NCBI GenBank assembly: GCA_016839585.1
Contig: JAEOTZ010000072.1
Location: 87,355-151,354, forward strand
Length of the DNA: 64,000 nt
DNA from: Promethearchaeota archaeon
GTDB taxonomy: Archaea; Asgardarchaeota; Lokiarchaeia; Sigyniarchaeales; SOKP01
Direction: 5' to 3'
Notes under the pieces: model-generated
Told to the model about the DNA's origin: nothing
The model's input: the letters and a program-made list of their open reading frames with translations, nothing else
Database searches by the model: none
Part shown: positions 3,024 through 55,889 of the stretch, piece after piece
Numbering within the stretch: position 1 is the first letter of the stretch
How the letters are laid out: the number at the start of each line of letters is the position of its first letter
Position numbers and translations under genes: made by a program

Positions 3024-5417
3024 ATGGATCGAGAGAGAATTGTAATTGTTGGTGGAGTTGCTGGAGGAGCCTCTGCGGCAGCAAGGTTAAGGAGATTACG
3101 AGAGGATTTAGAAATTGTCATGTTAGATAAAGGTCCGTATGTTAGTTTTGCCAACTGCGGGCTTCCATATTATGTGGGAAATGTAATAAAGGATCGCGAG
3201 TCTTTAGAACTAGTCTCACCAGAGATGTTCCTAGAAAGGTTCAATATTGATGTTAGAGTTAATAATGAAGTAATTTCAATAGATAAAGAGAAAAAGCAAG
3301 TCAAAGTCAGAGATTTAAAAAAATTGTACGAATACTTCTTAGATTATGATAACTTGATTTTAGCAACTGGCTCAAATCCTATTGTACCTTCTTTTAATGG
3401 TCTTGAGGATGTACCATATTTTACAGTATGGTCTATACCCGATGCTGTAAAAATTAGAGATTATGTTGAAAAACATAATATAAAGAATGCTGTTATCGTT
3501 GGTGGTGGCTTTATTGGATTAGAAATGGCAGAAAACTTAGTTGAGAAGAGAGTGAAAGTAAAAATAGTGGAAATGCTAGATCAGGTAATGCCACCAATAG
3601 ATAAGGAAATAGCGCAATTTATTCATCAAGAATTAATATTAAATGGAGTTTGTCTCGTTTTAGAAGATCCCGTAGATTCCTTTGGAAGAACTGAAGCTGG
3701 CCAACCTTTTGTTAAAACCAAAAGTGGTCGTGTTATAGAAACAGATCTGATAATTTTATCAATAGGTATTAGACCAGAAAGTAAGTTGGCTAAAGAAGCA
3801 GATTTAGAATTAACAGAAAGAGGTTATATAAAGGTTAATCGTAGAATGTTAGCATCTGATCCCAGTATTTATGCTGTTGGAGATACTATTCAAGTTCAGC
3901 ATTATCAAACAAATCAACCAATATCTATAGCCTTAGCAGGTCCAGCAAATAAACAAGGGAGAATTGCGGCAGAAAATGTTGCCGGAAGAAATTTAGAATA
4001 TAAAGGAATTTTGGGAGCATCTGTAGTTAAAATTTTTGATGTCACTGTTGCTTCTGCAGGTTTAACAGAAAAACAACTAAAAAATACCACTATTAAATAT
4101 GAAAAAATATATGTACATCCAAACAATCATGCTGGTTACTATCCAGGAGCTATACCAATAACGATTAAATTAATTTTCGAAGTACCTAGTGGTAAAGTTC
4201 TTGGAGCTCAGGCTGTTGGAGGTCAAGGTACAGAAAAAAGAATTGATGTCATCTCTACTGTAATTAAGTTTGGTGGGACAGTTTTTGACTTGGAAGAATT
4301 AGAGTTAACTTATGCTCCTCCGTATGGTTCTGCAAAAGATCCAGTAAATATGGCAGGATTTGTTGCGGCAAATTATCTTAGAGAAGATATGCCTATTTGG
4401 CATTGGCATGATATTAATGAAGTTAAAACTAATGGAGGTATATTATTAGATGTTAGAACCAAAGAAGAATATGCAGCTAGAACCATCGAGGACTCAATGA
4501 ACGTACCAATTGAAGAATTAAGAAAACGATTAAGTGAAATACCTAATAATGGGCCAATCTACGTCTATTGCGAAGTAGGATATAGAAGTTATTTAGCTAC
4601 TAGGATTCTTTTACAAAGTGGATTTAAAGAAGTCTATGAATTAACCGGAGGATTTAAAATTTTTGAAATGGCAAATGCTACCACAGAAGAAATAATGGCT
4701 GCATGTGGAGGATCCGAAAACGTTATCGAGGAATTTGTACATGAAAAAGCTATTGAAACAGATAATTATGTAGAAGTTGATGCTTGTGGATTATCCTGTC
4801 CAGGACCTCTCAATGTGTTAATCAAATCACTTGATACATTACCTGAAAATAAAAAATTAAAAATCTATGCTACTGACCCAGGATTTAAATCTAGTGTTGA
4901 AGCCTATTCTAAATTAAATGAAGCTGTAAAATTATTACATCTTGGAAAAGAAGAAGGGAAGTTAGTAGCTACTTTAGAAAAAGTCCAGCCCACTATAGAA
5001 GTTATACCTACTGTTAGAAAGAAAACTAGAAAGGAATTAAGACCTCCTGATGCACCTCCGATTTCAGATATTAATGTTGATGAATTATATGAACGAATTG
5101 ATACTGAAGATGAGCCAGTACTCTTAATTGATGTCAGAACCTCACAGGAATTTTATGGTTCAGGGGGTCATATAAAGAATTCCAAGTTAATTCCCTTAGG
5201 AGAATTATTAAATAATACAGATGTCATAAAAGATTATAAGAATGAAGAAATAGTTGTGATTTGTCATTCCGGGTCTCGCTCTATGATGGCAGCTCAATTG
5301 TTAGCACAGGCAGGATTCAAGGACGTTAGAAACCTCTTAGGGGGAATAATGATATGGCACCGAAAAGGTTATCCCGTAAAGTTAGAAGAAGAAAGAATGG
5401 CAGGAACATTTTATTGA
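3024..5417 (+). CDS. CoA-disulfide/persulfide reductase (CoADR/Npsr) fused to rhodanese, TusA and a second rhodanese domain
   Basis: GGVAGG, SFANCGLPY, GGGFIGLE, YAPPY; rhodanese YCEVGYRS; TusA DACGLSCPGP; second rhodanese ICHSGSRS. Confidence 0.9.
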   Translation: MDRERIVIVGGVAGGASAAARLRRLREDLEIVMLDKGPYVSFANCGLPYYVGNVIKDRESLELVSPEMFLERFNIDVRVNNEVISIDKEKKQVKVRDLKKLYEYFLDYDNLILATGSNPIVPSFNGLEDVPYFTVWSIPDAVKIRDYVEKHNIKNAVIVGGGFIGLEMAENLVEKRVKVKIVEMLDQVMPPIDKEIAQFIHQELILNGVCLVLEDPVDSFGRTEAGQPFVKTKSGRVIETDLIILSIGIRPESKLAKEADLELTERGYIKVNRRMLASDPSIYAVGDTIQVQHYQTNQPISIALAGPANKQGRIAAENVAGRNLEYKGILGASVVKIFDVTVASAGLTEKQLKNTTIKYEKIYVHPNNHAGYYPGAIPITIKLIFEVPSGKVLGAQAVGGQGTEKRIDVISTVIKFGGTVFDLEELELTYAPPYGSAKDPVNMAGFVAANYLREDMPIWHWHDINEVKTNGGILLDVRTKEEYAARTIEDSMNVPIEELRKRLSEIPNNGPIYVYCEVGYRSYLATRILLQSGFKEVYELTGGFKIFEMANATTEEIMAACGGSENVIEEFVHEKAIETDNYVEVDACGLSCPGPLNVLIKSLDTLPENKKLKIYATDPGFKSSVEAYSKLNEAVKLLHLGKEEGKLVATLEKVQPTIEVIPTVRKKTRKELRPPDAPPISDINVDELYERIDTEDEPVLLIDVRTSQEFYGSGGHIKNSKLIPLGELLNNTDVIKDYKNEEIVVICHSGSRSMMAAQLLAQAGFKDVRNLLGGIMIWHRKGYPVKLEEERMAGTFY

Positions 5418-44038: not shown

Positions 44039-45202
44039 TTAAATTCCAACTACACTTATGGGCACAGAATCATTATCTGAATCTATAGCTGCTTTCACAT
44101 AGGGAGAAACTGGTCCATTTGCTACAACCATAATTTTTATCTTTGAACCTAAGGTTGCATCCATACTTGTTCCGAATTTTAGCTGTGCACTCTTAGGGAT
44201 TTCATTTGAAATAGTCGAAATGACTTTATCTACATTATCTAAAGATAAGGTATGATCACCTGTTACTGATACTAAGCATCTCTTAACTTGACTAGGATCT
44301 GGCTTCAAAAGTGGATTATTTAAAGCCAATTTTGATTTTTCAATTAAATCTGATTCATCTCCTAAAGATTCAGTTATTCCGATTAATCCAGAAGGATATT
44401 TTTCTTTCCGTTCAAAGACTCTTTTTACATCTGCGAAATCTATATTTACTAACCCACAATTATTAATCAAGTTCACAACTTCACCGATATTTCTTATTAA
44501 CACTTCATCCATTATTTTAAAACCTGTAATCATAGGGATCTTTCCTACAATATGTAATAGATTATCATTTGGGATTGCAATTAATGTATCAGAATACTCG
44601 GCTAAATTTTTAAGACCAGAATTGGCTCTAATTAATCTTTGATCACCTTCAGATTTAAATGGAAGTGAGCAGAATGTAACAACTATACAATTATTTTTTT
44701 TTGCTTCTTGTGCTATAATCGGCGCTGCACCTGTACCTGTACCTCCACCTAAACCACAAGTTAGGAAGATAATATCAGCATTCAATGTTTTACGAATTCT
44801 TTCACGATCTTCTTCTGCAGCTTCAGCTCCAACGGAAGGATCATTTCCAGAACCCAATCCATTACATCTTTCTTTTCCGATTAAGATTTTATGTTTTGCA
44901 TTCGAATAATATAAATCGTGAGCATCAGTATTAATATTTAAAGTTTCAGCATCACTAATACCCATATCCTCTAATCGGGAAACTGTGTTGTTTCCTGCCC
45001 CACCAACACCAACAACCAAAGATCTAATTCTTAAAACTTTTACTAAGTCCGAAAGAAACTTATCATCATCACAGACATTATCAGGATTTGCATTTTGTTT
45101 ATGAAAATTTTTGATTTCATTAAATCTTGATCTTACAGATAAACGACTTTGCGCTAAATCTGTTAAATCAATTCGTTCCTCATCTTTCAATTTTATCAGC
45201 AT
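44039..45202 (-). CDS. ftsZ: Cell division protein FtsZ
   Basis: VGVGGAGNN, NTD, GLGSG, GLGGGTGTG, PF..EG, NIDFAD T7 loop. Confidence 0.95.
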   Translation of the reverse strand: MLIKLKDEERIDLTDLAQSRLSVRSRFNEIKNFHKQNANPDNVCDDDKFLSDLVKVLRIRSLVVGVGGAGNNTVSRLEDMGISDAETLNINTDAHDLYYSNAKHKILIGKERCNGLGSGNDPSVGAEAAEEDRERIRKTLNADIIFLTCGLGGGTGTGAAPIIAQEAKKNNCIVVTFCSLPFKSEGDQRLIRANSGLKNLAEYSDTLIAIPNDNLLHIVGKIPMITGFKIMDEVLIRNIGEVVNLINNCGLVNIDFADVKRVFERKEKYPSGLIGITESLGDESDLIEKSKLALNNPLLKPDPSQVKRCLVSVTGDHTLSLDNVDKVISTISNEIPKSAQLKFGTSMDATLGSKIKIMVVANGPVSPYVKAAIDSDNDSVPISVVGI

Positions 45203-48160: not shown

Positions 48161-49177
48161 TTAATATTTTGAAGGAGTCTTTGTTTTAATTTTGTATTTT
48201 GGGATAGTTTTAGCCTTTCTTAATTCTTTTTCAAAATCTCTTTTTTCTCTTAGAAACCTCTCCTTGTCTCTTTCTAATTTTTCTCTTTCCCGTTTTATTG
48301 TATTTTTCTCATTATGTATCATTGATTTTTCTTTTTCCAATTTTTTATACTCATTATTTAGTCTTCTAAGTTTTTCCTCTAAGTCAGGAATTTTGCGTGT
48401 TAATGTGTAATACTGATCTTCTGCAAGAGGAACTTTTCTATTTAACTCTTTTAATCTTGCTTGTTGTTCCCGTTTTCTCTTTTCCAAAGCGTTTCCATCC
48501 CTTTCTACTTTATCTCTATATTTTTTCAGATCTACTTTTTTCTTATCAATTTCACTAGCTTTTAGATTTAAATCTTTTATTTTATAATGAGCTTTTTCTC
48601 TATCTTCTTTTAATTTTTGCTTTTCATCAGAAATTCGATTTTTTTCACCAAAAATCTCCCTCCTAAAGTTATCAATTTCCGTATTTAAATTATCTCTTTC
48701 TTTGGTTAGATGCTTAATTTCGTTCCTTAAATCCATTAATTTATTTTCTAAATCGTTAATAGTTCTCTTTAAAGCACTTTCTCTTCTTTCCATGTTAGGT
48801 ATTTTAGTTTTAATTCGTTTAATCCTTTCTAAATCATCTCGAATTCTTTCTAATTGTCTTTCTTCCTCATCCAAATGATGTTTTTTATCAAAAATATTAT
48901 TTTGTAGGTTAGTTATTTCATCTCGTAATTTATCACGATTATTAGAAAGATTTCTTATCTCTAATTCGGTCTGTTTTCTTTTCCTCTCAAGCTCATTTAG
49001 GTTGTTATTATACCCTTCCATTTGTTCGAGAACTTTCTGCCATTCACCTTTTTCTTTATTTAACTTTTTTCTCTCTTCTCTAATTTTATTTAGCAATTTC
49101 TTATCTGGTATTAATTCTAAATACTCATCTGGTGTTTTTTCATGAATTTCATATTTAGGAGGTATCTTATCTTTCAT
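48161..49177 (-). CDS. Long coiled-coil protein, unknown function
   Basis: About 290 aa of near-continuous K/E/R/L heptads; no ATPase motif or TM. Confidence 0.7.
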   Translation of the reverse strand: MKDKIPPKYEIHEKTPDEYLELIPDKKLLNKIREERKKLNKEKGEWQKVLEQMEGYNNNLNELERKRKQTELEIRNLSNNRDKLRDEITNLQNNIFDKKHHLDEEERQLERIRDDLERIKRIKTKIPNMERRESALKRTINDLENKLMDLRNEIKHLTKERDNLNTEIDNFRREIFGEKNRISDEKQKLKEDREKAHYKIKDLNLKASEIDKKKVDLKKYRDKVERDGNALEKRKREQQARLKELNRKVPLAEDQYYTLTRKIPDLEEKLRRLNNEYKKLEKEKSMIHNEKNTIKREREKLERDKERFLREKRDFEKELRKAKTIPKYKIKTKTPSKY

Positions 49178-49360
49178 ATTTATTCATTTTTCTTAAAAAT
49201 ATATTATTAAACTTAAAAATGGGTTGATTAATAAAGATTTTAATTTATTCTTATGAGATATTTTATTAAAATCTATTTATATAGAATAATTTCTATTATT
49301 TATATAAAATCATCCCTAAATAAAAGTAAAAGTCAATTATTAAATAAATGGTGTAGAATG

Positions 49361-49744
49361 ATGGGATTTGATGACGAATTTGATGAGGATTTCGATGAAG
49401 AATTAGAATTTGATGAAGATTTAGAAGAATTAAGTTCTAAAACTCCAGACGATAAAGTTGAATCTAAAACTCCTGTTGTTAAAACTATTCCTGAAGGGAA
49501 AAAGATTTCAGTATATTTTATGTCTACTATTGGTCCAGGTGAGAAAAAACAAAAATTACTTATAAATTCAGGAAATCATGTTGGAGATATTAAAGAAACT
49601 GTAGCAAATTTATTTGGTTTAGATCCTGTTGATTTTCATTTATCTTCAGGTGGAGTAACTATGGATGAGAGTTTTCCTTTAAAAGATTATAATGTGAATG
49701 ATGGAGATGACATACTTTTAATTCCTGCAAGTACTGCTGGTTAA
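49361..49744 (+). CDS. Ubiquitin-like modifier, copy 1 (acidic N-tail, C-terminal ...STAG)
   Basis: Beta-grasp pattern VGDIKETV..LFGL....FHLSSGG..MDE..PLKDYNVNDGDDILL; terminal Gly. The upstream ORF-track extension is AT-rich promoter-like DNA; GGTG SD before ATG 49358/49361. Confidence 0.85.
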   Translation: MGFDDEFDEDFDEELEFDEDLEELSSKTPDDKVESKTPVVKTIPEGKKISVYFMSTIGPGEKKQKLLINSGNHVGDIKETVANLFGLDPVDFHLSSGGVTMDESFPLKDYNVNDGDDILLIPASTAG

Positions 49745-49788: not shown

Positions 49789-50583
49789 TTAATCTTTTTC
49801 TTTTCTTGATGGGATTAGAGCAATTTCATCATCATCATCTATATCATAGTCTTTTATTTGTGAGTTTTCGTGCAATAATATACCTCCAGAGGATAACAGA
49901 AAATCTTTTAAATTGTAATTAAATAATATCCCTACTCTTTCTTTCACTACACTTATTAACTCAATAGTGTTAACAATAATTATTTTCGTTTTTTCGCCCG
50001 GCTCAACTAATGATCTTATATAAATTCGGAGCTGGTCTTCCATTTTAATAGGATTCATTGGTGGTATATATATTATCTCCTCATCAGTTTTATCCTTGCT
50101 TTTCAACATATTTTCTATTAAACTTTTCCTCTCATTTGGGTCAAAATATAACATTTCCCTAATAAACACTATTTTATCCATTTTTGATAATCCTAAAAGG
50201 TTTATTTTATCTAATTCTTCCTGATTAAAAACTGAAAATATATATTTGTCTATTACAGGAATATTTTCATGTGATTCATTTGATGTAATGTATTCTTCTA
50301 TTGAAGGCATTGTATCGATATAATTTTCAATAATATCTACTATTTTCTTTTTAATCGGCTTTTGTTTAGCAAAATATTTCTTTTCTCTTATCTTTCTGTC
50401 TTGACTATCTTTGGAGTGTAAGACAGTATAGATAGTACTTGTGGATAATACTGCGACACTACCAATAGTCAAGAAGAGAAATAAAGGAATACTTTCTATC
50501 TGTAATAGGAAAAAAAACATATAGATTAAAAGAAAAATACTATAAAGAGTTATAACACTTAAAATTCTGTATTTGTTTCTCAT
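49789..50583 (-). CDS. 2-TM membrane protein with C-terminal ubiquitin-like domain lacking terminal Gly
   Basis: Two N-terminal TM; C-terminal PGEK...VKERV..LF...FLLSSGG...ENSQIKDY...LIPSRKEKD aligns to both Ubls. Confidence 0.8.
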   Translation of the reverse strand: MRNKYRILSVITLYSIFLLIYMFFFLLQIESIPLFLFLTIGSVAVLSTSTIYTVLHSKDSQDRKIREKKYFAKQKPIKKKIVDIIENYIDTMPSIEEYITSNESHENIPVIDKYIFSVFNQEELDKINLLGLSKMDKIVFIREMLYFDPNERKSLIENMLKSKDKTDEEIIYIPPMNPIKMEDQLRIYIRSLVEPGEKTKIIIVNTIELISVVKERVGILFNYNLKDFLLSSGGILLHENSQIKDYDIDDDDEIALIPSRKEKD

Positions 50584-50668: not shown

Positions 50669-51340
50669 TCATACACCTTGAATTGATTTTTTAACTTTAG
50701 AATATTTCTCTGAGTCTAATTTAAATCCATTTCTATTTTTAATTTTTTCAATTTTAATTAATTTCAGGTTTTTTAAAATATCGATATATTTCTTAATAGT
50801 ACTGTGATTTTTTTTTAAGCTATTTGCTATATCTGTAATTTTTAATGCTTTATTTTCTTTCTTCATAAAATTAATTAATTTTTGAACGATTTCTTTATTT
50901 AAATAAAAGTAAAACTCATCAAGTTCAGAATTTGACTCAAATTTGAAGAAAATTCTATGATTATTGATTTTTTTTGATCGAATAAATTGAAATTTTTCTA
51001 GACATGATAAATGCCATAAAGCTTGATTACTTCCGATATTTAGAGCTTTCATTATTCCATTAATATTTGAAGGTTTTCTTTTAATATAATTAAATATCTC
51101 ATTCCTTTTTGGATGCTCAACGATATTATTTTTCATTAATCTAGTTCCCGGGATAATAACTCGCCTTTTAATTAAATCCTTTAAGATTAATTCTATTCTA
51201 TTCTCATTTATATTAGGATTGTACCTTACTCTATTATTTATAAATGATATGATCTCTCTTATTGAAAAGAAAGTTTTTTTTGTTAAATACTCTCTTACTA
51301 ATTCAAGAACAACAGATTCTGCATTATCCAGAAAACTCAT
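50669..51340 (-). CDS. Multi-winged-helix (ArsR-like) transcriptional regulator
   Basis: HPKRNEIFNYI...WHLSCLEK and ITDIANSLKKNHSTIKKYIDILKNLKLI. Confidence 0.78.
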   Translation of the reverse strand: MSFLDNAESVVLELVREYLTKKTFFSIREIISFINNRVRYNPNINENRIELILKDLIKRRVIIPGTRLMKNNIVEHPKRNEIFNYIKRKPSNINGIMKALNIGSNQALWHLSCLEKFQFIRSKKINNHRIFFKFESNSELDEFYFYLNKEIVQKLINFMKKENKALKITDIANSLKKNHSTIKKYIDILKNLKLIKIEKIKNRNGFKLDSEKYSKVKKSIQGV

Positions 51341-51614: not shown

Positions 51615-51947
51615 ATGAGTTTTGATGAATTTGATGAAGATTTGGTTGGGGAAGAACCAGTAAAATCTAAAACTCCCGCAACTAAAACCCCTTCAGCAGG
51701 AAAGAAATTAACTCTATATTTCATGTCAACTATTGGTCCTGGTGAAAAGAAGGAGAAATTAACTGTGAATGATGCTAATCATGTAAGTGATATTAAGCAA
51801 ACATTAGGGAATTTATTTGGACTTGACCCTAATGATTTTCATATATCATCTGGCGGAGTTACAATGGATGAAAATAGTCAATTAAAAGACTATAGTGTAA
51901 GTGATGGAGACGATATTCTTTTGATCCCTGCGAGTACTGCTGGGTAA
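51615..51947 (+). CDS. Ubiquitin-like modifier, copy 2 (C-terminal ...STAG)
   Basis: 63/82 identity to copy 1 over the core by hand alignment; first gene of the E1-E2-JAMM-RING run. Confidence 0.88.
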   Translation: MSFDEFDEDLVGEEPVKSKTPATKTPSAGKKLTLYFMSTIGPGEKKEKLTVNDANHVSDIKQTLGNLFGLDPNDFHISSGGVTMDENSQLKDYSVSDGDDILLIPASTAG

Positions 51948-51979: not shown

Positions 51980-52008
51980 AAGGGCTTAAAGCCCTTTATT
52001 TTTTTTTT
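51980..52008 (+). terminator. Hairpin plus T-tract between Ubl2 and E1
   Basis: AAGGGCT-TAA-AGCCCTT followed by TATTTTTTTTTT. Confidence 0.55.
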
Positions 52009-52027: not shown

Positions 52028-53263
52028 ATGGTGATTATATTGGATAAGGATTCAGACTTTTTTACAAAAGAATTATCAGTGGAAGAGAGAGATTTATACG
52101 ATCGTCAATTCCGTCTTGAAGGCTGGTCCCAGAAATTAGTAAAAAACACCAGAGTATTAATAGTAGGAGTTGGAGGTTTAGGATGTGAAATTGCTAAAAA
52201 CTTAGCCATGCTTGGTGTTGGTCACTTAGATCTCGTTGATTTAGATATTATTGAACATTCTAATTTGAACCGTCAAATACTTTTTACAGGAGCGAAGATA
52301 GGAGAGCCTAAAGTAGTGGTTGCTGCTAGAAAACTAACTGAAATTAATCCTAATGTTATTATTAAGGGATATCATACTTCTCTAGAAAGGTTAAATCCTG
52401 CTGTATATCAAGCTGCTGATGTTGTTATAGGAGGTCTTGATTCTATGAATGCACGACTTAACTTAAATGCACAATGCATAAGGTTTAAAAAGCCATTAGT
52501 AGATGGAGGTGTATCTGGTTATTATGGTCACGTATACACTATCTTCCCTTATCAAAATGCTTGTTATGAGTGCAATCCATTACCAGTAGTAGAGGGTGAT
52601 GAGATGGCTGCTTGTACAGTGGTTGGGGTCCCCAGAAAAAGGATTCATTGCCTTTTTAAAGGAGATATGGCATTTAAAGAAAACTTTGACAGAGATCCTA
52701 ATCCAAAAGATATAAATGATATTAAGTTTATTCAAAAGGTCGCAAATGAATTGGTGAATAAACATAATTTCTTACCTGAATACACAGAAGATGACATTGT
52801 GAAAATTATTGATAGACATGATCCTGGTATAATAACTATAAATGCAATTATTTCTGCTTTACAATCACATGAAGCAATAAAAATTCTACATTGGAAAGAA
52901 GGTCATAAAGGATTAGGTGAACCTATTAAAAGTTATGTTATCTTTAATGCAATGACAATGAAATTTTACCATATTGAGAAACATAGGAATCCAGAATGTT
53001 CTCAGTGTGGTAGAAGTGTTCGAAGAGTATCTATAAAATTAAGATCTCAATCACCTTGCATAAATATAATTAAAATATTAGAGAAAAATGGTTTTGAATT
53101 GGATCCTGATTATGAACCTGTTCTAACTTTATTAGATTTCAATGATATTAAAATTGTAGATTTAGAAAAGAATCCAATTGAAAATGGGTTAAGAAATTAT
53201 GAATTCATAACTAGTGCTGGATTTAAAGATGGAGAGATTTTTGTAACCTTAAAATTAAAATAA
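52028..53263 (+). CDS. Ubl-activating enzyme E1 (ThiF domain; UBA3/UBA2-like catalytic Cys region)
   Basis: LYDRQ, VGVGGLGCE, D.IEHSNLNRQ, CYEC...ACTVVGVPR..IHC, CSQC; ~85-aa C-terminal extension. Confidence 0.92.
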   Translation: MVIILDKDSDFFTKELSVEERDLYDRQFRLEGWSQKLVKNTRVLIVGVGGLGCEIAKNLAMLGVGHLDLVDLDIIEHSNLNRQILFTGAKIGEPKVVVAARKLTEINPNVIIKGYHTSLERLNPAVYQAADVVIGGLDSMNARLNLNAQCIRFKKPLVDGGVSGYYGHVYTIFPYQNACYECNPLPVVEGDEMAACTVVGVPRKRIHCLFKGDMAFKENFDRDPNPKDINDIKFIQKVANELVNKHNFLPEYTEDDIVKIIDRHDPGIITINAIISALQSHEAIKILHWKEGHKGLGEPIKSYVIFNAMTMKFYHIEKHRNPECSQCGRSVRRVSIKLRSQSPCINIIKILEKNGFELDPDYEPVLTLLDFNDIKIVDLEKNPIENGLRNYEFITSAGFKDGEIFVTLKLK

Positions 53264-53339: not shown

Positions 53340-53867
53340 ATGAGTATAAGAAGTAGTAGAATTTCCCAAGATTTTGGGGGATTAAAAAAAATGTTAAAAG
53401 AAGGATCTATTGTTCAATTAAAACCTTTTAATCCTAAAAAGAAGAGTATTGATCACTTAGCCATCTCTTTTAGAGGACCTAAAGGGACAGTATATTCAGG
53501 TGGTCTTTTTAGATTGGAAATGAAATTTCCTGCTCAATATCCTAAACAACCTCCTTTTGTAAGAATGCATACTCCAATTTGGCATCCAAATTTTTGGCCA
53601 AAACCGAGTGAATATAAAGGACAGAGAAATATTTGTTTAGCATTAGTAGATCCCTCTTTAGTTGGTAAAAAAGGTGGATGGAGTCCATCAAAAACCGCTG
53701 TCACGATTGTTCAAGCAATAATTGCTATGTTAAACACCCGTGGTAAGTACGTAAATCCAACAGATGTTTTTAATAAAAAAGCAGCATTAGAAATGATTAA
53801 AAATCCTAAATTTTTCGATAAAAAAGTCAAAAACTTAGTTAAAAAGTATGCTAATGAGAAATGGTGA
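53340..53867 (+). CDS. Ubiquitin-conjugating enzyme E2 (UBC fold)
   Basis: GPKGTVYSGGLF, FPAQYPKQPP, TPIWHPN...ICL...WSPS. Confidence 0.93.
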   Translation: MSIRSSRISQDFGGLKKMLKEGSIVQLKPFNPKKKSIDHLAISFRGPKGTVYSGGLFRLEMKFPAQYPKQPPFVRMHTPIWHPNFWPKPSEYKGQRNICLALVDPSLVGKKGGWSPSKTAVTIVQAIIAMLNTRGKYVNPTDVFNKKAALEMIKNPKFFDKKVKNLVKKYANEKW

Positions 53868-54690
53868 AAATTTAATGAATTATGATAATAATAATAATAA
53901 TAGTAATTTAATCAAAGAAGCAATAAAACATAAAATTAAGGAAAAAATTAAAAAAGAACTGCTTGAAGAGATATATACTGAATTAAAATCAGAAGAAGAA
54001 TTGATAGATGAAATAACTTCTGAATTTAGTCAAAATAAGCCTTCAGATCATACCAAAAAAATTAACATTACACATGAGAATTCATCAAAAGAATCAGAAA
54101 TAGCATATATTAAACATAATGACACTGAAGCCAAGATAACTATAACAGTTAAAGCTATTCTTAAGATAGCAAGCCATTCTTTAAAATATGCTCACTCTAA
54201 GATCCCAAGGGAGGATTGGGTTGAAGTGATAGGGTTACTTGCCGGCAATTTAGATAATTCTGGGCGTATTCTTCATATAGAAGATGCTTATCCAATGGGT
54301 CATGGTACAGCTGTTTATGCTGAAATTAAAGATTATAAAAATTATGTGAGAGCTTTTAAAGATATTAAGAGGAATAAATTATACATCTGTGGATGGTATC
54401 ATTCTCATCCATCTTATGGGTGTTTTATGTCTAATGAAGATATAGGAACTCAAGCTAGATATCAAAAATTATGGGATAAGGCTATTGCTCTTGTTATAGA
54501 TCCATATCAAATTGATGGTACTTCATTAGGATTTGAGATTTATCGTGCAAATATCAGAACAAAAAAATGGTTTTCTTTACCATATAATATAAAAGGGTAT
54601 TTAGATGTTCGAATGTTGCCTGAAATCTTGGCATTTATGAATCCTATTATTGAGGGGAAACCTGTTTACTTGGAATATGATGAAGATTAA
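53848..54690 (+). CDS. JAMM/MPN+ isopeptidase (Rpn11/CSN5-like)
   Basis: EVIGLLAG, GWYHSHPSYGCFMSNEDI..Q, ALVIDP; start may be 53875. Confidence 0.92.
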   Translation: MLMRNGENLMNYDNNNNNSNLIKEAIKHKIKEKIKKELLEEIYTELKSEEELIDEITSEFSQNKPSDHTKKINITHENSSKESEIAYIKHNDTEAKITITVKAILKIASHSLKYAHSKIPREDWVEVIGLLAGNLDNSGRILHIEDAYPMGHGTAVYAEIKDYKNYVRAFKDIKRNKLYICGWYHSHPSYGCFMSNEDIGTQARYQKLWDKAIALVIDPYQIDGTSLGFEIYRANIRTKKWFSLPYNIKGYLDVRMLPEILAFMNPIIEGKPVYLEYDED

Positions 54691-54719: not shown

Positions 54720-55889
54720 ATGGTGAAAACTAAAACTGTTGCGATATCATTAATTATCTTTTTAATCATAGGCATAATCCATGGTGCTATTTTAGACTCA
54801 TTTAATGTATTTGTAACTTGGTTATTAATTGGTTTATGGATAATATTTACTATTAAAATTTTAGAAAATGTAAAACGTCACCGCGAATTTAATTCACCAC
54901 ACAATACTGCCTTTTTTGTCATAATCCCTTTATTTATCGGAATTTTTTACTCTATTTGGGGTTATTTTACCGGTATTCTGGCTGAAAACCTTCTAGAGGG
55001 TTCAGATCTATATTTTAGTTGGTGGAGTATCATTTTTGGATTTCCATTTGTATTATATGGCGCTCATTCTTTATATCGTTGTTTTAAGAAATATAATGTT
55101 ATTTATTTTGGAACGAAATCAATAAAAGCTAGGTTATTTGGATATATTTTAACCTTTATTGTTCTTCTTTTTATAATATTTTATTGGATTATTTTTTATA
55201 CTGTTATTGAATTCTATAATTTTCCATTAATCCCGCTTCACTTCTCTGTAGATCTTAACCTTTTATTATTATTCATAATTACAATATTGATATTAATTGT
55301 TTTTGGATTTATTAGTTCACAAAGACCATTGCCAACATTAACTCGTGATTATATAGCACAACGTACTAGGAGAATAAATTCATTAACATCTCCTACTGCA
55401 TTATCTTCGCCTAGAAGACAAAGACAAACTGTAAGTACAACAATTAGATCAACACCAACATCTAGAAATATATCTCGAACAACAAGATCAAGTACTCAAT
55501 CATCAAGAACAACACCAACTTCACATAGACAAACAAATAGAACAAGAACAACAAAAACTACCCAAACTAGAAGTGTAAAACCAACATCAAAAAGTCGAGA
55601 TCTAAATAGATATAAGCCAATAGGATCATATCTATCACAGGACGATTTTAAATGTATTTTTTGTTTTAAATTACCAAAACTTCCTGAGGATAGAGGGAGA
55701 GGGATAATCTTGTGCCCACATTGTAGATACCCAGCACATGCAGATGAATTTAAAGATTGGTTACGAACCTCAAATCTGTGTTCACGATGTAGTACCCCTA
55801 TTCCATCTACCTTTAAAAGTAATCCTAGGATAATTAGTGTAAAGGATTATTTAATTATCTATAGACATTTTTTAAGAAAAAAGAACTAG
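54720..55889 (+). CDS. Polytopic membrane protein with C-terminal RING-variant finger (putative E3 ligase)
   Basis: About 6 TM, S/T/R-rich linker, CIFC-x16-CPHC-x4-HADE..W....CSRC. Confidence 0.8.
   Translation: MVKTKTVAISLIIFLIIGIIHGAILDSFNVFVTWLLIGLWIIFTIKILENVKRHREFNSPHNTAFFVIIPLFIGIFYSIWGYFTGILAENLLEGSDLYFSWWSIIFGFPFVLYGAHSLYRCFKKYNVIYFGTKSIKARLFGYILTFIVLLFIIFYWIIFYTVIEFYNFPLIPLHFSVDLNLLLLFIITILILIVFGFISSQRPLPTLTRDYIAQRTRRINSLTSPTALSSPRRQRQTVSTTIRSTPTSRNISRTTRSSTQSSRTTPTSHRQTNRTRTTKTTQTRSVKPTSKSRDLNRYKPIGSYLSQDDFKCIFCFKLPKLPEDRGRGIILCPHCRYPAHADEFKDWLRTSNLCSRCSTPIPSTFKSNPRIISVKDYLIIYRHFLRKKN

Follow-up and report, generated by a model that had tools for sequence, protein, structure and literature searches.

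An Ala-Gly-ending ubiquitin-family protein and its probable modifier pathway in a Lokiarchaeial genome

Eukaryotes keep the ubiquitin (Ub), NEDD8 and SUMO pathways apart, and UFM1, which ends ...IIPRDRVG in its mature form, is served by the enzymes UBA5, UFC1 and UFL1. Bacterial Bil/Bub-type operons unite E1, E2, JAB and ubiquitin-like (Ubl) genes, have fused or divergent E1/E2 enzymes and act in phage defence. The system of Caldiarchaeum subterraneum comprises a ubiquitin (CsUb), E1, E2, a small RING finger protein and CsRpn11 (PMC5654768, PMC6043591), and ubiquitin operons of the Gly-Gly (GG) type have been published for Asgard archaea (bioRxiv 10.1101/2023.07.25.550441). UFM1 homologues have been reported from nine Asgard clades in a 2026 paper, which also notes multi-hit proteins and termini that are long and disordered (PMC12962969). 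When the literature was searched for Asgard modifiers ending in Ala-Gly or a single Gly, for membrane RING proteins and for Asgard reconstitutions, only GG-type work and this UFM1 report came up. To date, the archaeal ubiquitin systems that have been characterised (Caldiarchaeum, Helarchaeia) are GG-type, and the family described here, which ends in Ala-Gly (AG), differs from them. It is abundant and very strongly conserved, and its genes lie beside those for eukaryote-like E1, E2 and JAMM proteins and a RING-like membrane protein, in the archaea nearest to the question of eukaryote origins.

The locus lies in a 64,000-nucleotide stretch of Lokiarchaeial DNA (the window, to which all coordinates refer), where genes for two AG-ending Ubls, Ubl1 and Ubl2, are found among the following features:

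48161..49177, minus strand: coiled-coil protein adjoining the Ubl genes (only coiled-coil Pfam noise)
49361..49744, plus strand: Ubl1, AG-ending paralogue of Ubl2 with a longer acidic N-terminal arm and the same C-terminal 12 residues
49789..50583, minus strand: membrane protein whose C-terminal Ubl domain belongs to the same family and ends ...IALIPSRKEKD (Pfam, paralogue comparison)
50669..51340, minus strand: winged-helix (ArsR/HrcA-type) DNA-binding protein (HrcA_DNA-bdg 5.8e-09, HTH_5 1.1e-07)
51615..51947, plus strand: Ubl2, predicted ubiquitin-family modifier of 110 aa (ORF, Pfam ubiquitin, AF2 model, Foldseek/VIA)
51980..52006, plus strand: terminator-like hairpin and T-run, downstream of the Ubl2 stop codon and ahead of the E1 gene (consensus scan only)
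52028..53263, plus strand: E1 activating enzyme, 411 aa (Pfam ThiF 3.6e-61)
53340..53867, plus strand: UBC-fold E2 with HPN motif and catalytic Cys (RNICLAL) (Pfam UQ_con 6.2e-24)
53848..54690, plus strand: JAMM/MPN+ metalloprotease with HSHP...S..D motif (Pfam JAB 8.6e-16)
54720..55889, plus strand: polytopic membrane protein with a C-terminal Cys/His module, CxxC-x16-CxxC-x4-H...CxxC (from sequence)

Both paralogues stop immediately 3' of ...DDILLIPASTAG, and the C-terminus of Ubl2, ...SDGDDILLIPASTAG, is followed directly by a TAA stop; in this genome neither protein carries GG or a propeptide. Ubl1, whose reading frame is open from 49253 with the Met at 49361 as its likely start, is 69% identical to Ubl2 (E 1.5e-43). 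In the AF2 model, Ubl2 is laid out as an acidic and aromatic arm containing KSKTP (residues 1-30, predicted disordered, pLDDT about 50), a beta-grasp core (residues 31-105, pLDDT 83-90), and the tail ASTAG that runs up to Gly110.

Ubl2 is of the ubiquitin type by both sequence and fold. Its own match to the Pfam ubiquitin model (PF00240) is marginal, at 25.8 bits against a cut-off of 25.4, and the same model matches all 43 family members found among 50%-identity cluster representatives, whose alignment spans down to 36% identity (best 2.9e-12; Rad60-SLD matches 33 of the 43, weakly). Searched against the PDB, the family profile recovers ubiquitin, ISG15, FAT10, ubiquilin and Caldiarchaeum Ub, with single ubiquitin chains at ~6e-06. 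Caldiarchaeum Ub is also the best Foldseek match of the Ubl2 model (6fno_D, E 8.8e-08, TM 0.84), followed by SUMO1, ISG15 and NEDD8, and VIA, with Z values of 14-15, superposes ubiquitin chains (Z 13.6-14.4) with an rmsd of 1.2-1.5 A across 74-78 residues, aligning model residues 30/31-110 to Ub -1/0-76 and placing Gly110 on Ub Gly76; residues 48-101 align without gaps to Ub 14-67. The Ile44-centred hydrophobic patch of ubiquitin is absent, its Ile44 position being taken by Ser78, with Ser as the family consensus, and the Gly-Gly terminus of the ubiquitin family is replaced by Ala-Gly.

A total of 868 homologues matched Ubl2, and among the close homologues listed, at 85-96% identity, PASTAG is present in 120 of 120, with 116 stopping exactly at the Gly. 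The pattern P-x-[S/T]-x-A-G recurs in 43/43 representatives, with GG in 0/43, and Ala-Gly at the ubiquitin 75-76 position is invariant across >160 sequences. Because Gly81, Pro105, Ala109 and Gly110 are all invariant in the 43-sequence alignment, the Ala-Gly terminus is real and not a matter of chance, and it defines the family. Between one and six residues follow the Gly in 24 of the 43 representatives, and two representatives are head-to-tail poly-Ubl precursors of three (P0121) and two (P0122) tandem units, each unit ending S-T/Q-A-G before the acidic arm of the next; these short tails and precursors mark Gly110 as the predicted point of processing and conjugation. A lookup of the three-unit precursor returned 1.2-kb contigs only. 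Of 201 Asgard genomes, 71 have the family, mainly within seven families, and some genomes hold extra stand-alone copies with no enzyme genes nearby. In some cases the member is the C-terminal part of a large protein (HerA-like ATPase; CDC48_N+VWA), and a role as a free tag therefore need not hold for every member. Positions 51666-51910 are covered, with 6 differences, by a contig from an RNA-seq library, a weak sign of expression in that the contig comes from a relative and could be carried-over DNA, and the parts of the window without RNA cover carry no evidential weight; the DNA runs matched are marine sediment and cold seep metagenomes.

These results support the distinct Ubl family that the original prediction had proposed, and show it to be well defined, to belong to a Loki-type Asgard subset and to have an invariant single terminal Gly. 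Its statement that both Ubls stop straight after LIPASTAG without GG agrees with the open reading frames and their stops, and the core it likened to ubiquitin/NEDD8 emerges from the Pfam, profile, Foldseek and VIA comparisons as ubiquitin/NEDD8/SUMO-like. The flexible N-extension fits the predicted disorder of the first 30 residues, and the terminal Gly, loss of which in homologues had been named as a counter-sign, is invariant. The further idea that the tag needs no maturation holds in this genome but does not extend to the whole family, given the tailed representatives and the two tandem poly-Ubls.

The E1 downstream has an adenylation domain of the ThiF type, zinc-site residues in two CxxC pairs and a catalytic Cys196 within AACTVVGVPR; neither the catalytic Cys nor the zinc ligands vary among 6 orthologues. 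Its best PDB match is SAE2 (1.9e-38, 135.7 bits), followed by UBA1 (3e-36, 128 bits) and UBA3 (1e-34, 123 bits, over residues 35-334), with UBA5 at only 2.4e-16 (62.9 bits), and the roughly 80 aa at its C-terminus may form a ubiquitin-fold/E2-binding domain (Atlas lead UAE_UbL/E2_bind, 0.85). A predicted complex of E1, ATP and Ubl2 28-110 scored 0.29 against a mark of 0.32, which speaks neither for nor against binding. The E2 matches UBC15 best (1.4e-15), then Cdc34, UBE2T, UBE2L3 and UBC9, and the JAMM protein, closest to the Caldiarchaeum Rpn11-like protein (5e-18), Rpn11 (1e-14) and CSN5 (8e-13), is probably the Ubl-processing and deconjugating enzyme. Because the zinc-finger module of the polytopic membrane protein has no significant match to any Pfam RING model, we infer its RING assignment from the Cys/His pattern, and the protein is a candidate RING-like E3; its gene holds the same position in 5 other Asgard families. 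The gene order Ubl-E1-E2-JAB-TM-RING is itself kept in five other Asgard families at 36-75% identity.

On the other side of Ubl2, the membrane protein with the Ubl domain lacks the terminal Gly and is therefore not conjugatable. Its place between the two free Ubls is conserved and the three-gene arrangement recurs in related genera, and such membrane Ubl proteins form a conserved subfamily among the 50%-identity representatives. The winged-helix protein, transcribed divergently from Ubl2, is a candidate regulator, and the putative hairpin between Ubl2 and the E1 gene is consistent with expression of the tag above that of its enzymes. The coiled-coil protein, homologues of which adjoin Ubl genes at two further loci (L059 and L063), is a possible accessory component.

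A second, GG-type set of genes resides in the same genome on contig C89, consisting of JAB (170 aa), E1 (292 aa) and E2, a Ubl ending VIGG+YYKQ and a small zinc finger. This E1 scores best with UBA1, with SAE2/UBA3 much lower and BubCD among the weaker PDB matches, and hhalign of the AG family against the C89 Ubl (as a single sequence) gave an uninformative probability of 7.9%. A third, GG-ending Ub is present as a fragment at a contig end. Elsewhere in the genome, contig C5 carries an E1/E2 pair, with the E2-like gene seemingly split over two frames and no Ubl nearby.

The terminus invites comparison with UFM1, and the tail had indeed been described as having UFM1-like P-x4-G spacing and the family as possibly intermediate between Ub and UFM1. 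Ubl2 does share with mature UFM1 its one terminal Gly and the Pro that precedes it by five residues, and the 2026 report mentions long disordered termini alongside its UFM1 homologues (PMC12962969). However, since Gly110 superposes on Ub Gly76, this spacing is simply the tail length of ubiquitin: Pro105 and Gly110 align with ubiquitin Leu71 and Gly76, and the five-residue distance is that from L71 to G76. The Pfam Ufm1 model (PF03671) gave no match to Ubl2 at E up to 0.1, none among the 43 family members at E up to 10 and none across this genome. Over 201 Asgard genomes nothing exceeded its cut-off, and only one protein, L026, which ends IVPRDLLG and scores 17.3 bits, turned out to be UFM1-like; the best weak match, L021, is an MTAP-like phosphorylase and was rejected as noise. 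Used as a control, L026 had UFM1 as Foldseek matches 1-14, whereas no UFM1 chain was among the best 50 Foldseek or VIA matches of Ubl2, an absence from the list that by itself excludes no family. Searching for homologues of L026 brought up only two relatives (the set L026/P0239/P0240), too few for a family profile, and hhalign was therefore run with L026 as a single sequence, giving a probability of 0.9% against the AG family. The enzymes differ as well, with the E1 at 135.7 bits to SAE2 against 62.9 to UBA5 and an E2 of the UQ_con type with HPN, which agrees with the earlier reading of both as canonical and not UBA5/UFC1-like: the E1 is UBA2/UBA3/UBA1-like and the E2 UBC-like. The AG family is accordingly most probably no relative of UFM1 and is separate from the genuine Asgard UFM1-like proteins, and an orthologue of UFM1 or an evolutionary intermediate is a highly improbable identity for Ubl2. 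A sulfur carrier of the ThiS/MoaD/SAMP kind, or a dual-function SAMP-like tag with a MoeB-like E1, would equally combine a beta-grasp fold and terminal Gly with a ThiF-family neighbour, and five of the 43 members do have weak ThiS Pfam matches (best 0.0074), but Ubl2 itself has none. Every search is dominated by ubiquitin, ISG15, SUMO and NEDD8 sequences or structures, and profile and fold searches produced none of the grouping with sulfur carriers that had been put forward as an outcome against the original prediction; UFM1, ThiS, MoaD and SAMP structures are all absent from the listed fold matches, which bears on that list only. With an E1 that has a UBA2/UBA3-type catalytic Cys region and lacks a rhodanese domain, with E2, JAMM and RING-like genes accompanying Ubl and E1 in six Asgard families, and with separate short ThiF/MoeB homologues located elsewhere in the genome, a sulfur-carrier role is extremely improbable.

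Two other readings accept the ubiquitin-type fold. Ubl2 might be a non-conjugated adaptor that binds non-covalently, like Hub1/UBL5 and UBL-domain proteins, with the AG end incidental; the lack of a conserved Ile44 patch (Ser78), the related non-cleavable C-terminal modules in the membrane protein (SRKEKD end) and in large ATPase/VWA proteins, and the stand-alone copies without enzymes nearby would all suit it. Nevertheless, an incidental end sits poorly with an Ala-Gly held at the exact ubiquitin 75-76 position, with variable short tails and tandem repeats punctuated at AG, and with tight, conserved linkage to E1, E2 and JAMM genes, which makes an adaptor quite unlikely. Ubl2 might instead be the Lokiarchaeal orthologue of Caldiarchaeum-type ubiquitin after a trivial Gly-to-Ala change, with no separate pathway, as its top structural match and the shared parts of the published Caldiarchaeum and Asgard operons (PMC5654768, PMC6043591) would suggest. 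This is unlikely in its turn: the same genome has the separate compact GG-type operon and the third Ub fragment, the AG-system E1 is larger, ends in an additional domain and has a different best-match profile, the system adds the polytopic membrane E3 candidate, the membrane Ubl paralogue and the N-terminal arm, and GG occurs in no family member.

Taken together, computational evidence makes it likely that Ubl2 and Ubl1 are ubiquitin-family modifiers of a separate AG pathway, in which conjugation, the pairing of E1 with Ubl and the role of the E3 are read from genomic context. The neighbouring E1 would adenylate the free C-terminal Gly110 and then hold Ubl2 as a thioester on Cys196, from where it would pass to the Cys of the UBC-type E2 and, helped by the membrane RING-like protein, become linked to lysines on substrates in or close to the membrane. 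Its removal would fall to the Rpn11-like JAMM of the same operon, which in relatives with a short tail or tandem copies would also mature the tag by cutting after Ala-Gly. Given the invariant Ala-Gly end and the separate GG-type operon in the same genome, the Ala at the Gly75 position would most likely be a specificity determinant that insulates the AG-pathway E1 and protease from the GG pathway, in a way that may be much like the separation of Ub, NEDD8 and SUMO in eukaryotes.

More tentatively, we propose that Lokiarchaeia run at least two insulated Ubl pathways per cell, a compact GG-type and an AG-type, with invariant Ala75 as the switch between them. In this picture the AG-type set would pair its SUMO-like armed tag and poly-Ubl precursors with an E1 like UBA2/UBA3, a RING-like ligase in the membrane and a membrane-bound Ubl adaptor; as a whole, this proposal may well prove wrong. 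The membrane layout of the AG system would recall membrane ubiquitylation of the Hrd1/HERP or MARCH type, and were the two-pathway reading true, the division of ubiquitin signalling into parallel modifier pathways would be older than eukaryotes, and so would ubiquitylation directed to membranes. If the AG tag is conjugated, multiple parallel Ubl pathways would already exist in Asgard archaea, and the family would offer a natural Gly75-to-Ala tail for studies of E1 and deubiquitinase specificity. In that case the conjugates would escape the usual K-GG remnant proteomics of Asgard cultures: the tryptic site of Ubl2 closest to its C-terminus is Lys91, which leaves a 19-residue remnant, ...DYSVSDGDDILLIPASTAG.

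Compared with known systems, Ubl2 shares with ubiquitin and NEDD8 the beta-grasp fold, a tail of the same length with the terminal Gly at position 76, and conserved equivalents of Lys27, Gly47 and Asp58-Tyr59; like NEDD8 it has Ala at position 72, and the tandem precursors of its family recall polyubiquitin genes. Sequence identity to either is only about 15-25%, however, and relative to ubiquitin Gly75 is changed to Ala, Leu71 to Pro, Ile44 to Ser and Arg72 to Ala, with Val82 and Asp97 in place of Lys48 and Lys63. SUMO likewise has a disordered, Lys-bearing N-terminal arm, SUMO1 is among the top Foldseek matches, SAE2 is the best PDB match of the neighbouring E1 and Rad60-SLD matches 33 of the 43 members weakly, but Ubl2 lacks GG, scores 18.0 bits with Rad60-SLD (PF11976) against a cut-off of 23.8, shows no sign of a two-subunit E1 and is accompanied by an E2 that is not specifically UBC9-like. 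UFM1 and the set L026/P0239/P0240 resemble the AG family in their one C-terminal Gly, either free from the start or followed by a short tail, and in the Pro five residues upstream, and are unlike it in sequence family and enzymes and apparently in fold subtype; none of UBA5, UFC1 and UFL1 is similar to the proteins encoded next to Ubl2. Bacterial Bil/Bub operons have the same compact Ubl, E1, E2 and JAB content and tags ending in a single Gly, whereas the enzymes here are eukaryote-like and canonical and are joined by a membrane RING-like protein. With the Caldiarchaeum and GG-type Asgard operons the locus has in common a ubiquitin-family tag, E1, UBC E2, RING-type E3 candidate and Rpn11-like JAMM, CsUb and CsRpn11 being the best structural match of Ubl2 and the best match of the JAMM, respectively. 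It differs from them in a terminus that is invariantly Ala-Gly and never Gly-Gly, a 30-residue disordered arm with conserved motifs, a longer E1 (411 aa) with an extra C-terminal domain that scores best with SAE2/UBA3, an E3 candidate that is a polytopic membrane protein, a membrane-anchored Ubl paralogue, poly-Ubl precursors in relatives, and the coexistence of the AG operon with a GG-type operon in one genome.

The Ubl genes of the window, and the operon that follows them, are arranged as follows.

49361-49744, +: Ubl1, from its probable start (ORF 49253-49744), with the same terminal residues as Ubl2
49789-50583, -: membrane protein whose C-terminus is a Ubl domain of the AG family, ending ...IALIPSRKEKD, without the Gly
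51615-51947, +: Ubl2, the tag gene, an ORF of 110 residues ending ...SDGDDILLIPASTAG, with TAA immediately after
52028-53263, +: E1 (Pfam ThiF 3.6e-61)
53340-53867: E2 (UQ_con 6.2e-24, HPN, catalytic Cys)
53848-54690: JAMM (JAB) protein with an HSHP...S..D motif
54720-55889, +: polytopic membrane protein that carries a Cys/His module at its C-terminus, last gene of the operon

As the original prediction had described, both free Ubl genes stop directly after the same final Gly, and their products are 69% identical. The membrane Ubl protein represents a conserved subfamily, and in related genera, which retain this layout, it always lies between the two free Ubl genes; together with the polytopic zinc-finger protein it recalls the pairing of a UBL membrane adaptor with a membrane RING protein. 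A terminator-like hairpin and T-run separate the tag gene from the E1 gene, and 245 nt of the tag gene are covered, with six differences, by a contig assembled in an RNA-seq library of a sediment metatranscriptome, a faint indication of expression in a close relative. A gene for an FtsZ/tubulin-family GTPase (44039-45202, -; Pfam Tubulin 2.6e-40, FtsZ_C 4.2e-14) is located some 4 kb upstream of the Ubl cluster.

Judged by sequence profiles and a predicted fold, the tag belongs to the ubiquitin family and falls outside the UFM1, SUMO and ThiS/MoaD families. Ubl2 itself is barely over the Pfam ubiquitin cut-off (25.8 bits, cut-off 25.4), with weaker matches to Rad60-SLD and USP40-UBL; among 43 AG family members, however, the ubiquitin model matched all 43 (best 2.9e-12), Rad60-SLD 33, ThiS 5 (weakly) and Ufm1 none, which places the family with ubiquitin and not in the sulfur-carrier grouping that would have refuted the original prediction. 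Searched against PDB sequences, the family profile returned ubiquitin and polyubiquitin at the top, then ISG15, FAT10, ubiquilins and Caldiarchaeum ubiquitin. The AlphaFold model of Ubl2 has a beta-grasp core at residues 31-100 (pLDDT 83-90) and an arm, residues 1-30, that is disordered in the model (pLDDT ~50), in keeping with the flexible N-extension proposed earlier. The leading Foldseek hit was Caldiarchaeum ubiquitin (6fno_D, E 8.8e-08, TM 0.84); ubiquitin variants, SUMO1, ISG15 and NEDD8 came next, which supports the predicted ubiquitin/NEDD8-like core. VIA-align gave Z scores of 14-15 for ISG15 and ubiquitin chains, with model residues 30/31-110 aligned to ubiquitin -1/0-76 at 1.2-1.5 A for the latter, and in sequence Ubl2 48-101 aligns with ubiquitin 14-67 without gaps. 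The correspondence (Ubl2 = ubiquitin) is Lys61 = Lys27, Ser78 = Ile44, Gly81 = Gly47, Val82 = Lys48, Asp97 = Lys63, Pro105 = Leu71, Ala106 = Arg72, Thr108 = Arg74, Ala109 = Gly75 and Gly110 = Gly76. Ubl2 thus lacks two classical features of ubiquitin, its GG end and its Ile44 patch. NEDD8 has Ala at ubiquitin position 72, a likeness shared by Ala106.

The P-x4-G spacing of the tail had been considered UFM1-like, and the tag possibly intermediate between ubiquitin and UFM1; neither idea was supported. The tail is exactly as long as that of ubiquitin, so the spacing is not UFM1-specific, and Pfam Ufm1 had no match anywhere in the window's genome and nothing over cut-off in 201 Asgard genomes. 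The positive control was a UFM1-like Asgard protein, L026:

L026:1390-1701 (G084:C224), +: UFM1-like protein, 103 aa, ending ...YGIVPRDLLG plus VFW

This protein is rare (2 homologues found); its relatives P0239 and P0240 end at the same Gly or have another tail (range 0-6 residues), and no E1 or E2 adjoins its gene on the 20.9-kb contig. Its match to Pfam Ufm1 is weak (17.3 bits), its PDB sequence hits include no Ubl type other than UFM1, and for its AF2 model (pLDDT 85) Foldseek ranks 1-14 are all UFM1 (E 4e-06 to 1.5e-04, TM 0.81-0.88), above ubiquitin, so the method separates UFM1-type from ubiquitin-type folds. From its hits and modelled fold L026 is probably a genuine UFM1-like modifier, and a UFM1-like protein in Asgard archaea agrees with PMC12962969. 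At the profile level it is unrelated to the AG family (hhalign probability 0.9%), and a search with L026 as query found no counterpart in the window's genome. A UFM1-type assignment of the AG family was rejected on this comparison and the lack of Ufm1 matches (0/43).

The window belongs to a 3.45-Mb genome that is 99% complete (contig C61); the DNA runs containing it are marine sediment and cold-seep metagenomes, and the closest Ubl2 homologues, by their source names, point to Lokiarchaeia/Promethearchaeota-type Asgard archaea. Among the 201 Asgard genomes sampled, 71 carry the AG family, which is concentrated in seven taxonomic families (e.g. 33/40, 16/21, 8/10, 6/7 and 4/5 genomes) and was not found in other well-sampled ones (0/43 and 0/19). 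Ubl2 has 868 database homologues (E <= 0.001), and the best 120 of these, at 83-96% identity, all carry PASTAG, with Gly as the last residue in 116. Representatives of 50%-identity clusters, 43 in number, have a C-terminal P-x-[S/T]-x-A-G, the penultimate residue being Ala in every one and Gly in 0/43; the final Gly is terminal in 19 and followed by 1-6 residues in 24. The Ala-Gly end is therefore the signature of the family, and conservation of the terminal Gly, a point left for checking, was confirmed: Gly81, Pro105, Ala109 and Gly110 are invariant in the 43-sequence alignment, down to 36% identity.

Two representatives are head-to-tail repeats, P0121 (372 aa) with three units and P0122 (250 aa) with two, at loci L027 and L028 on contigs too short to reveal neighbours. 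Each unit ends S-T/Q-A-G and has its own acidic arm, the next beginning directly after, making these poly-Ubl genes an archaeal analogue of polyubiquitin genes. In precursors of ubiquitin, SUMO and NEDD8 a single invariant Gly sets off variable tails and tandem units, and since the same pattern is seen here, Gly110 marks the predicted point of processing and attachment. That the tag needs no maturation thus holds for the window's genome and fails family-wide, where tailed and tandem forms occur. In relatives, HerA/DUF87-like ATPases and CDC48_N+VWA proteins (P0135, P0146, P0149) also carry the AG-ending domain, fused at their very C-terminus, one such gene (L059:11572-13083, -) directly adjoining the Ubl-E1-E2-JAB-RING operon of genome G041; these fusions are a hint that the family may be connected with unfoldases or quality control, or that whole proteins may be attached via their own terminal Gly.

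The neighbouring E1 and E2 are canonical and not UBA5/UFC1-like, as predicted. The best PDB matches of the E1 are SAE2/UBA2 (1.9e-38, 136 bits), UBA1 (3e-36, 128 bits) and UBA3 (1e-34, 123 bits, over residues 35-334), with UBA5 at only 2.4e-16; the SAE2 alignment includes the catalytic-Cys segment (AACTVVGVPRKRIHC vs PGCTIRNTPSEPIHC), and all six orthologues compared retain Cys196 and four zinc-site cysteines. Ubiquitin-fold/E2-binding domains of eukaryotic E1s are the nearest language-model neighbours of its last 80 residues (score 0.85), which is only a lead to their identity. The E2 resembles UBC15, Cdc34, UBE2T, UBE2L3 and UBC9 alike, and the JAMM protein matches a Caldiarchaeum Rpn11-like protease best (5e-18), then Rpn11 and CSN5. 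The C-terminal ~60 residues of the membrane protein form a zinc module, CxxC-x16-CxxC-x4-H-x2-E...CxxC. No Pfam RING model matched it at significance, so it is from pattern and position that we infer a candidate RING-like E3; the module may be a variant similar to RING-CH or a treble-clef finger of another kind. Of loci taken from five further Asgard families, four keep the order Ubl-E1-E2-JAB-membrane zinc-finger protein, and the fifth (L061) has all genes, with E2, JAB and zinc-finger gene across the Ubl-E1 pair on the opposite side. Identities to the window are 43-67% (E1), 55-75% (E2), 36-60% (JAB) and 41-63% (tag), and the tags end STAG, STAG+SIN, STAG+K, STAG+VW and STAG+M.

Further Ubl pathway genes are present in the same genome:

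C89:37041-40811 (L017), 854-1366, 1420-2298 and 2408-2965, +, with 3040-3306 and 3450-3752, -: GG-type operon
L007:1489-1632 (contig C39), -: third Ub-like fragment, truncated by the contig end
C5:67979-68463 and 73271-74857, both -: third E1 (528 aa) and E2-like gene

The C89 operon encodes a 170-aa JAB, a 292-aa E1 and a 185-aa E2, together with an 88-aa Ubl (...WARVIGG plus YYKQ) and a small zinc-finger protein that matches Prok-RING weakly; its layout is of the published Caldiarchaeum type. Its E1 matches UBA1 best (102 bits), with SAE2 (64) and UBA3 (51) much lower, whereas the AG-system E1 is SAE2-best. The C39 fragment (...IFKGKVLPDQ...VMATQAGG) matches the C-terminal half of Pfam ubiquitin. 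On C5, no Ubl gene lies near the pair, and the UQ_con match of the E2-like gene is divided between two reading frames, perhaps owing to a frameshift or to faulty assembly. The AG tag is therefore one of several Ubl types in the cell, and its strict Ala at position 75 most likely confers specificity for the E1 and protease of its own system.

No paper on an AG-ending Asgard modifier was found in the literature searched, where the archaeal systems described are GG-type only; surveys of Asgard archaea have probably included AG-type genes under 'ubiquitin-like'. For the AG system as a whole we infer a cascade in which Gly110 would be adenylated and then held as a thioester on E1 Cys196, the tag would pass to the E2 Cys, and its ligation to lysines would be aided by the membrane zinc-finger protein, with the JAMM enzyme reversing conjugation and maturing tailed or tandem precursors. 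The Ubl paralogue that is anchored in the membrane and cannot be conjugated may hold the machinery there, and the arm, through its conserved acidic/aromatic motif and K-S/T-K-T-P lysines, may, as in SUMO, function in binding receptors or in forming chains. The system would, in these respects, operate in the manner of the ubiquitin cascades of archaea and eukaryotes.
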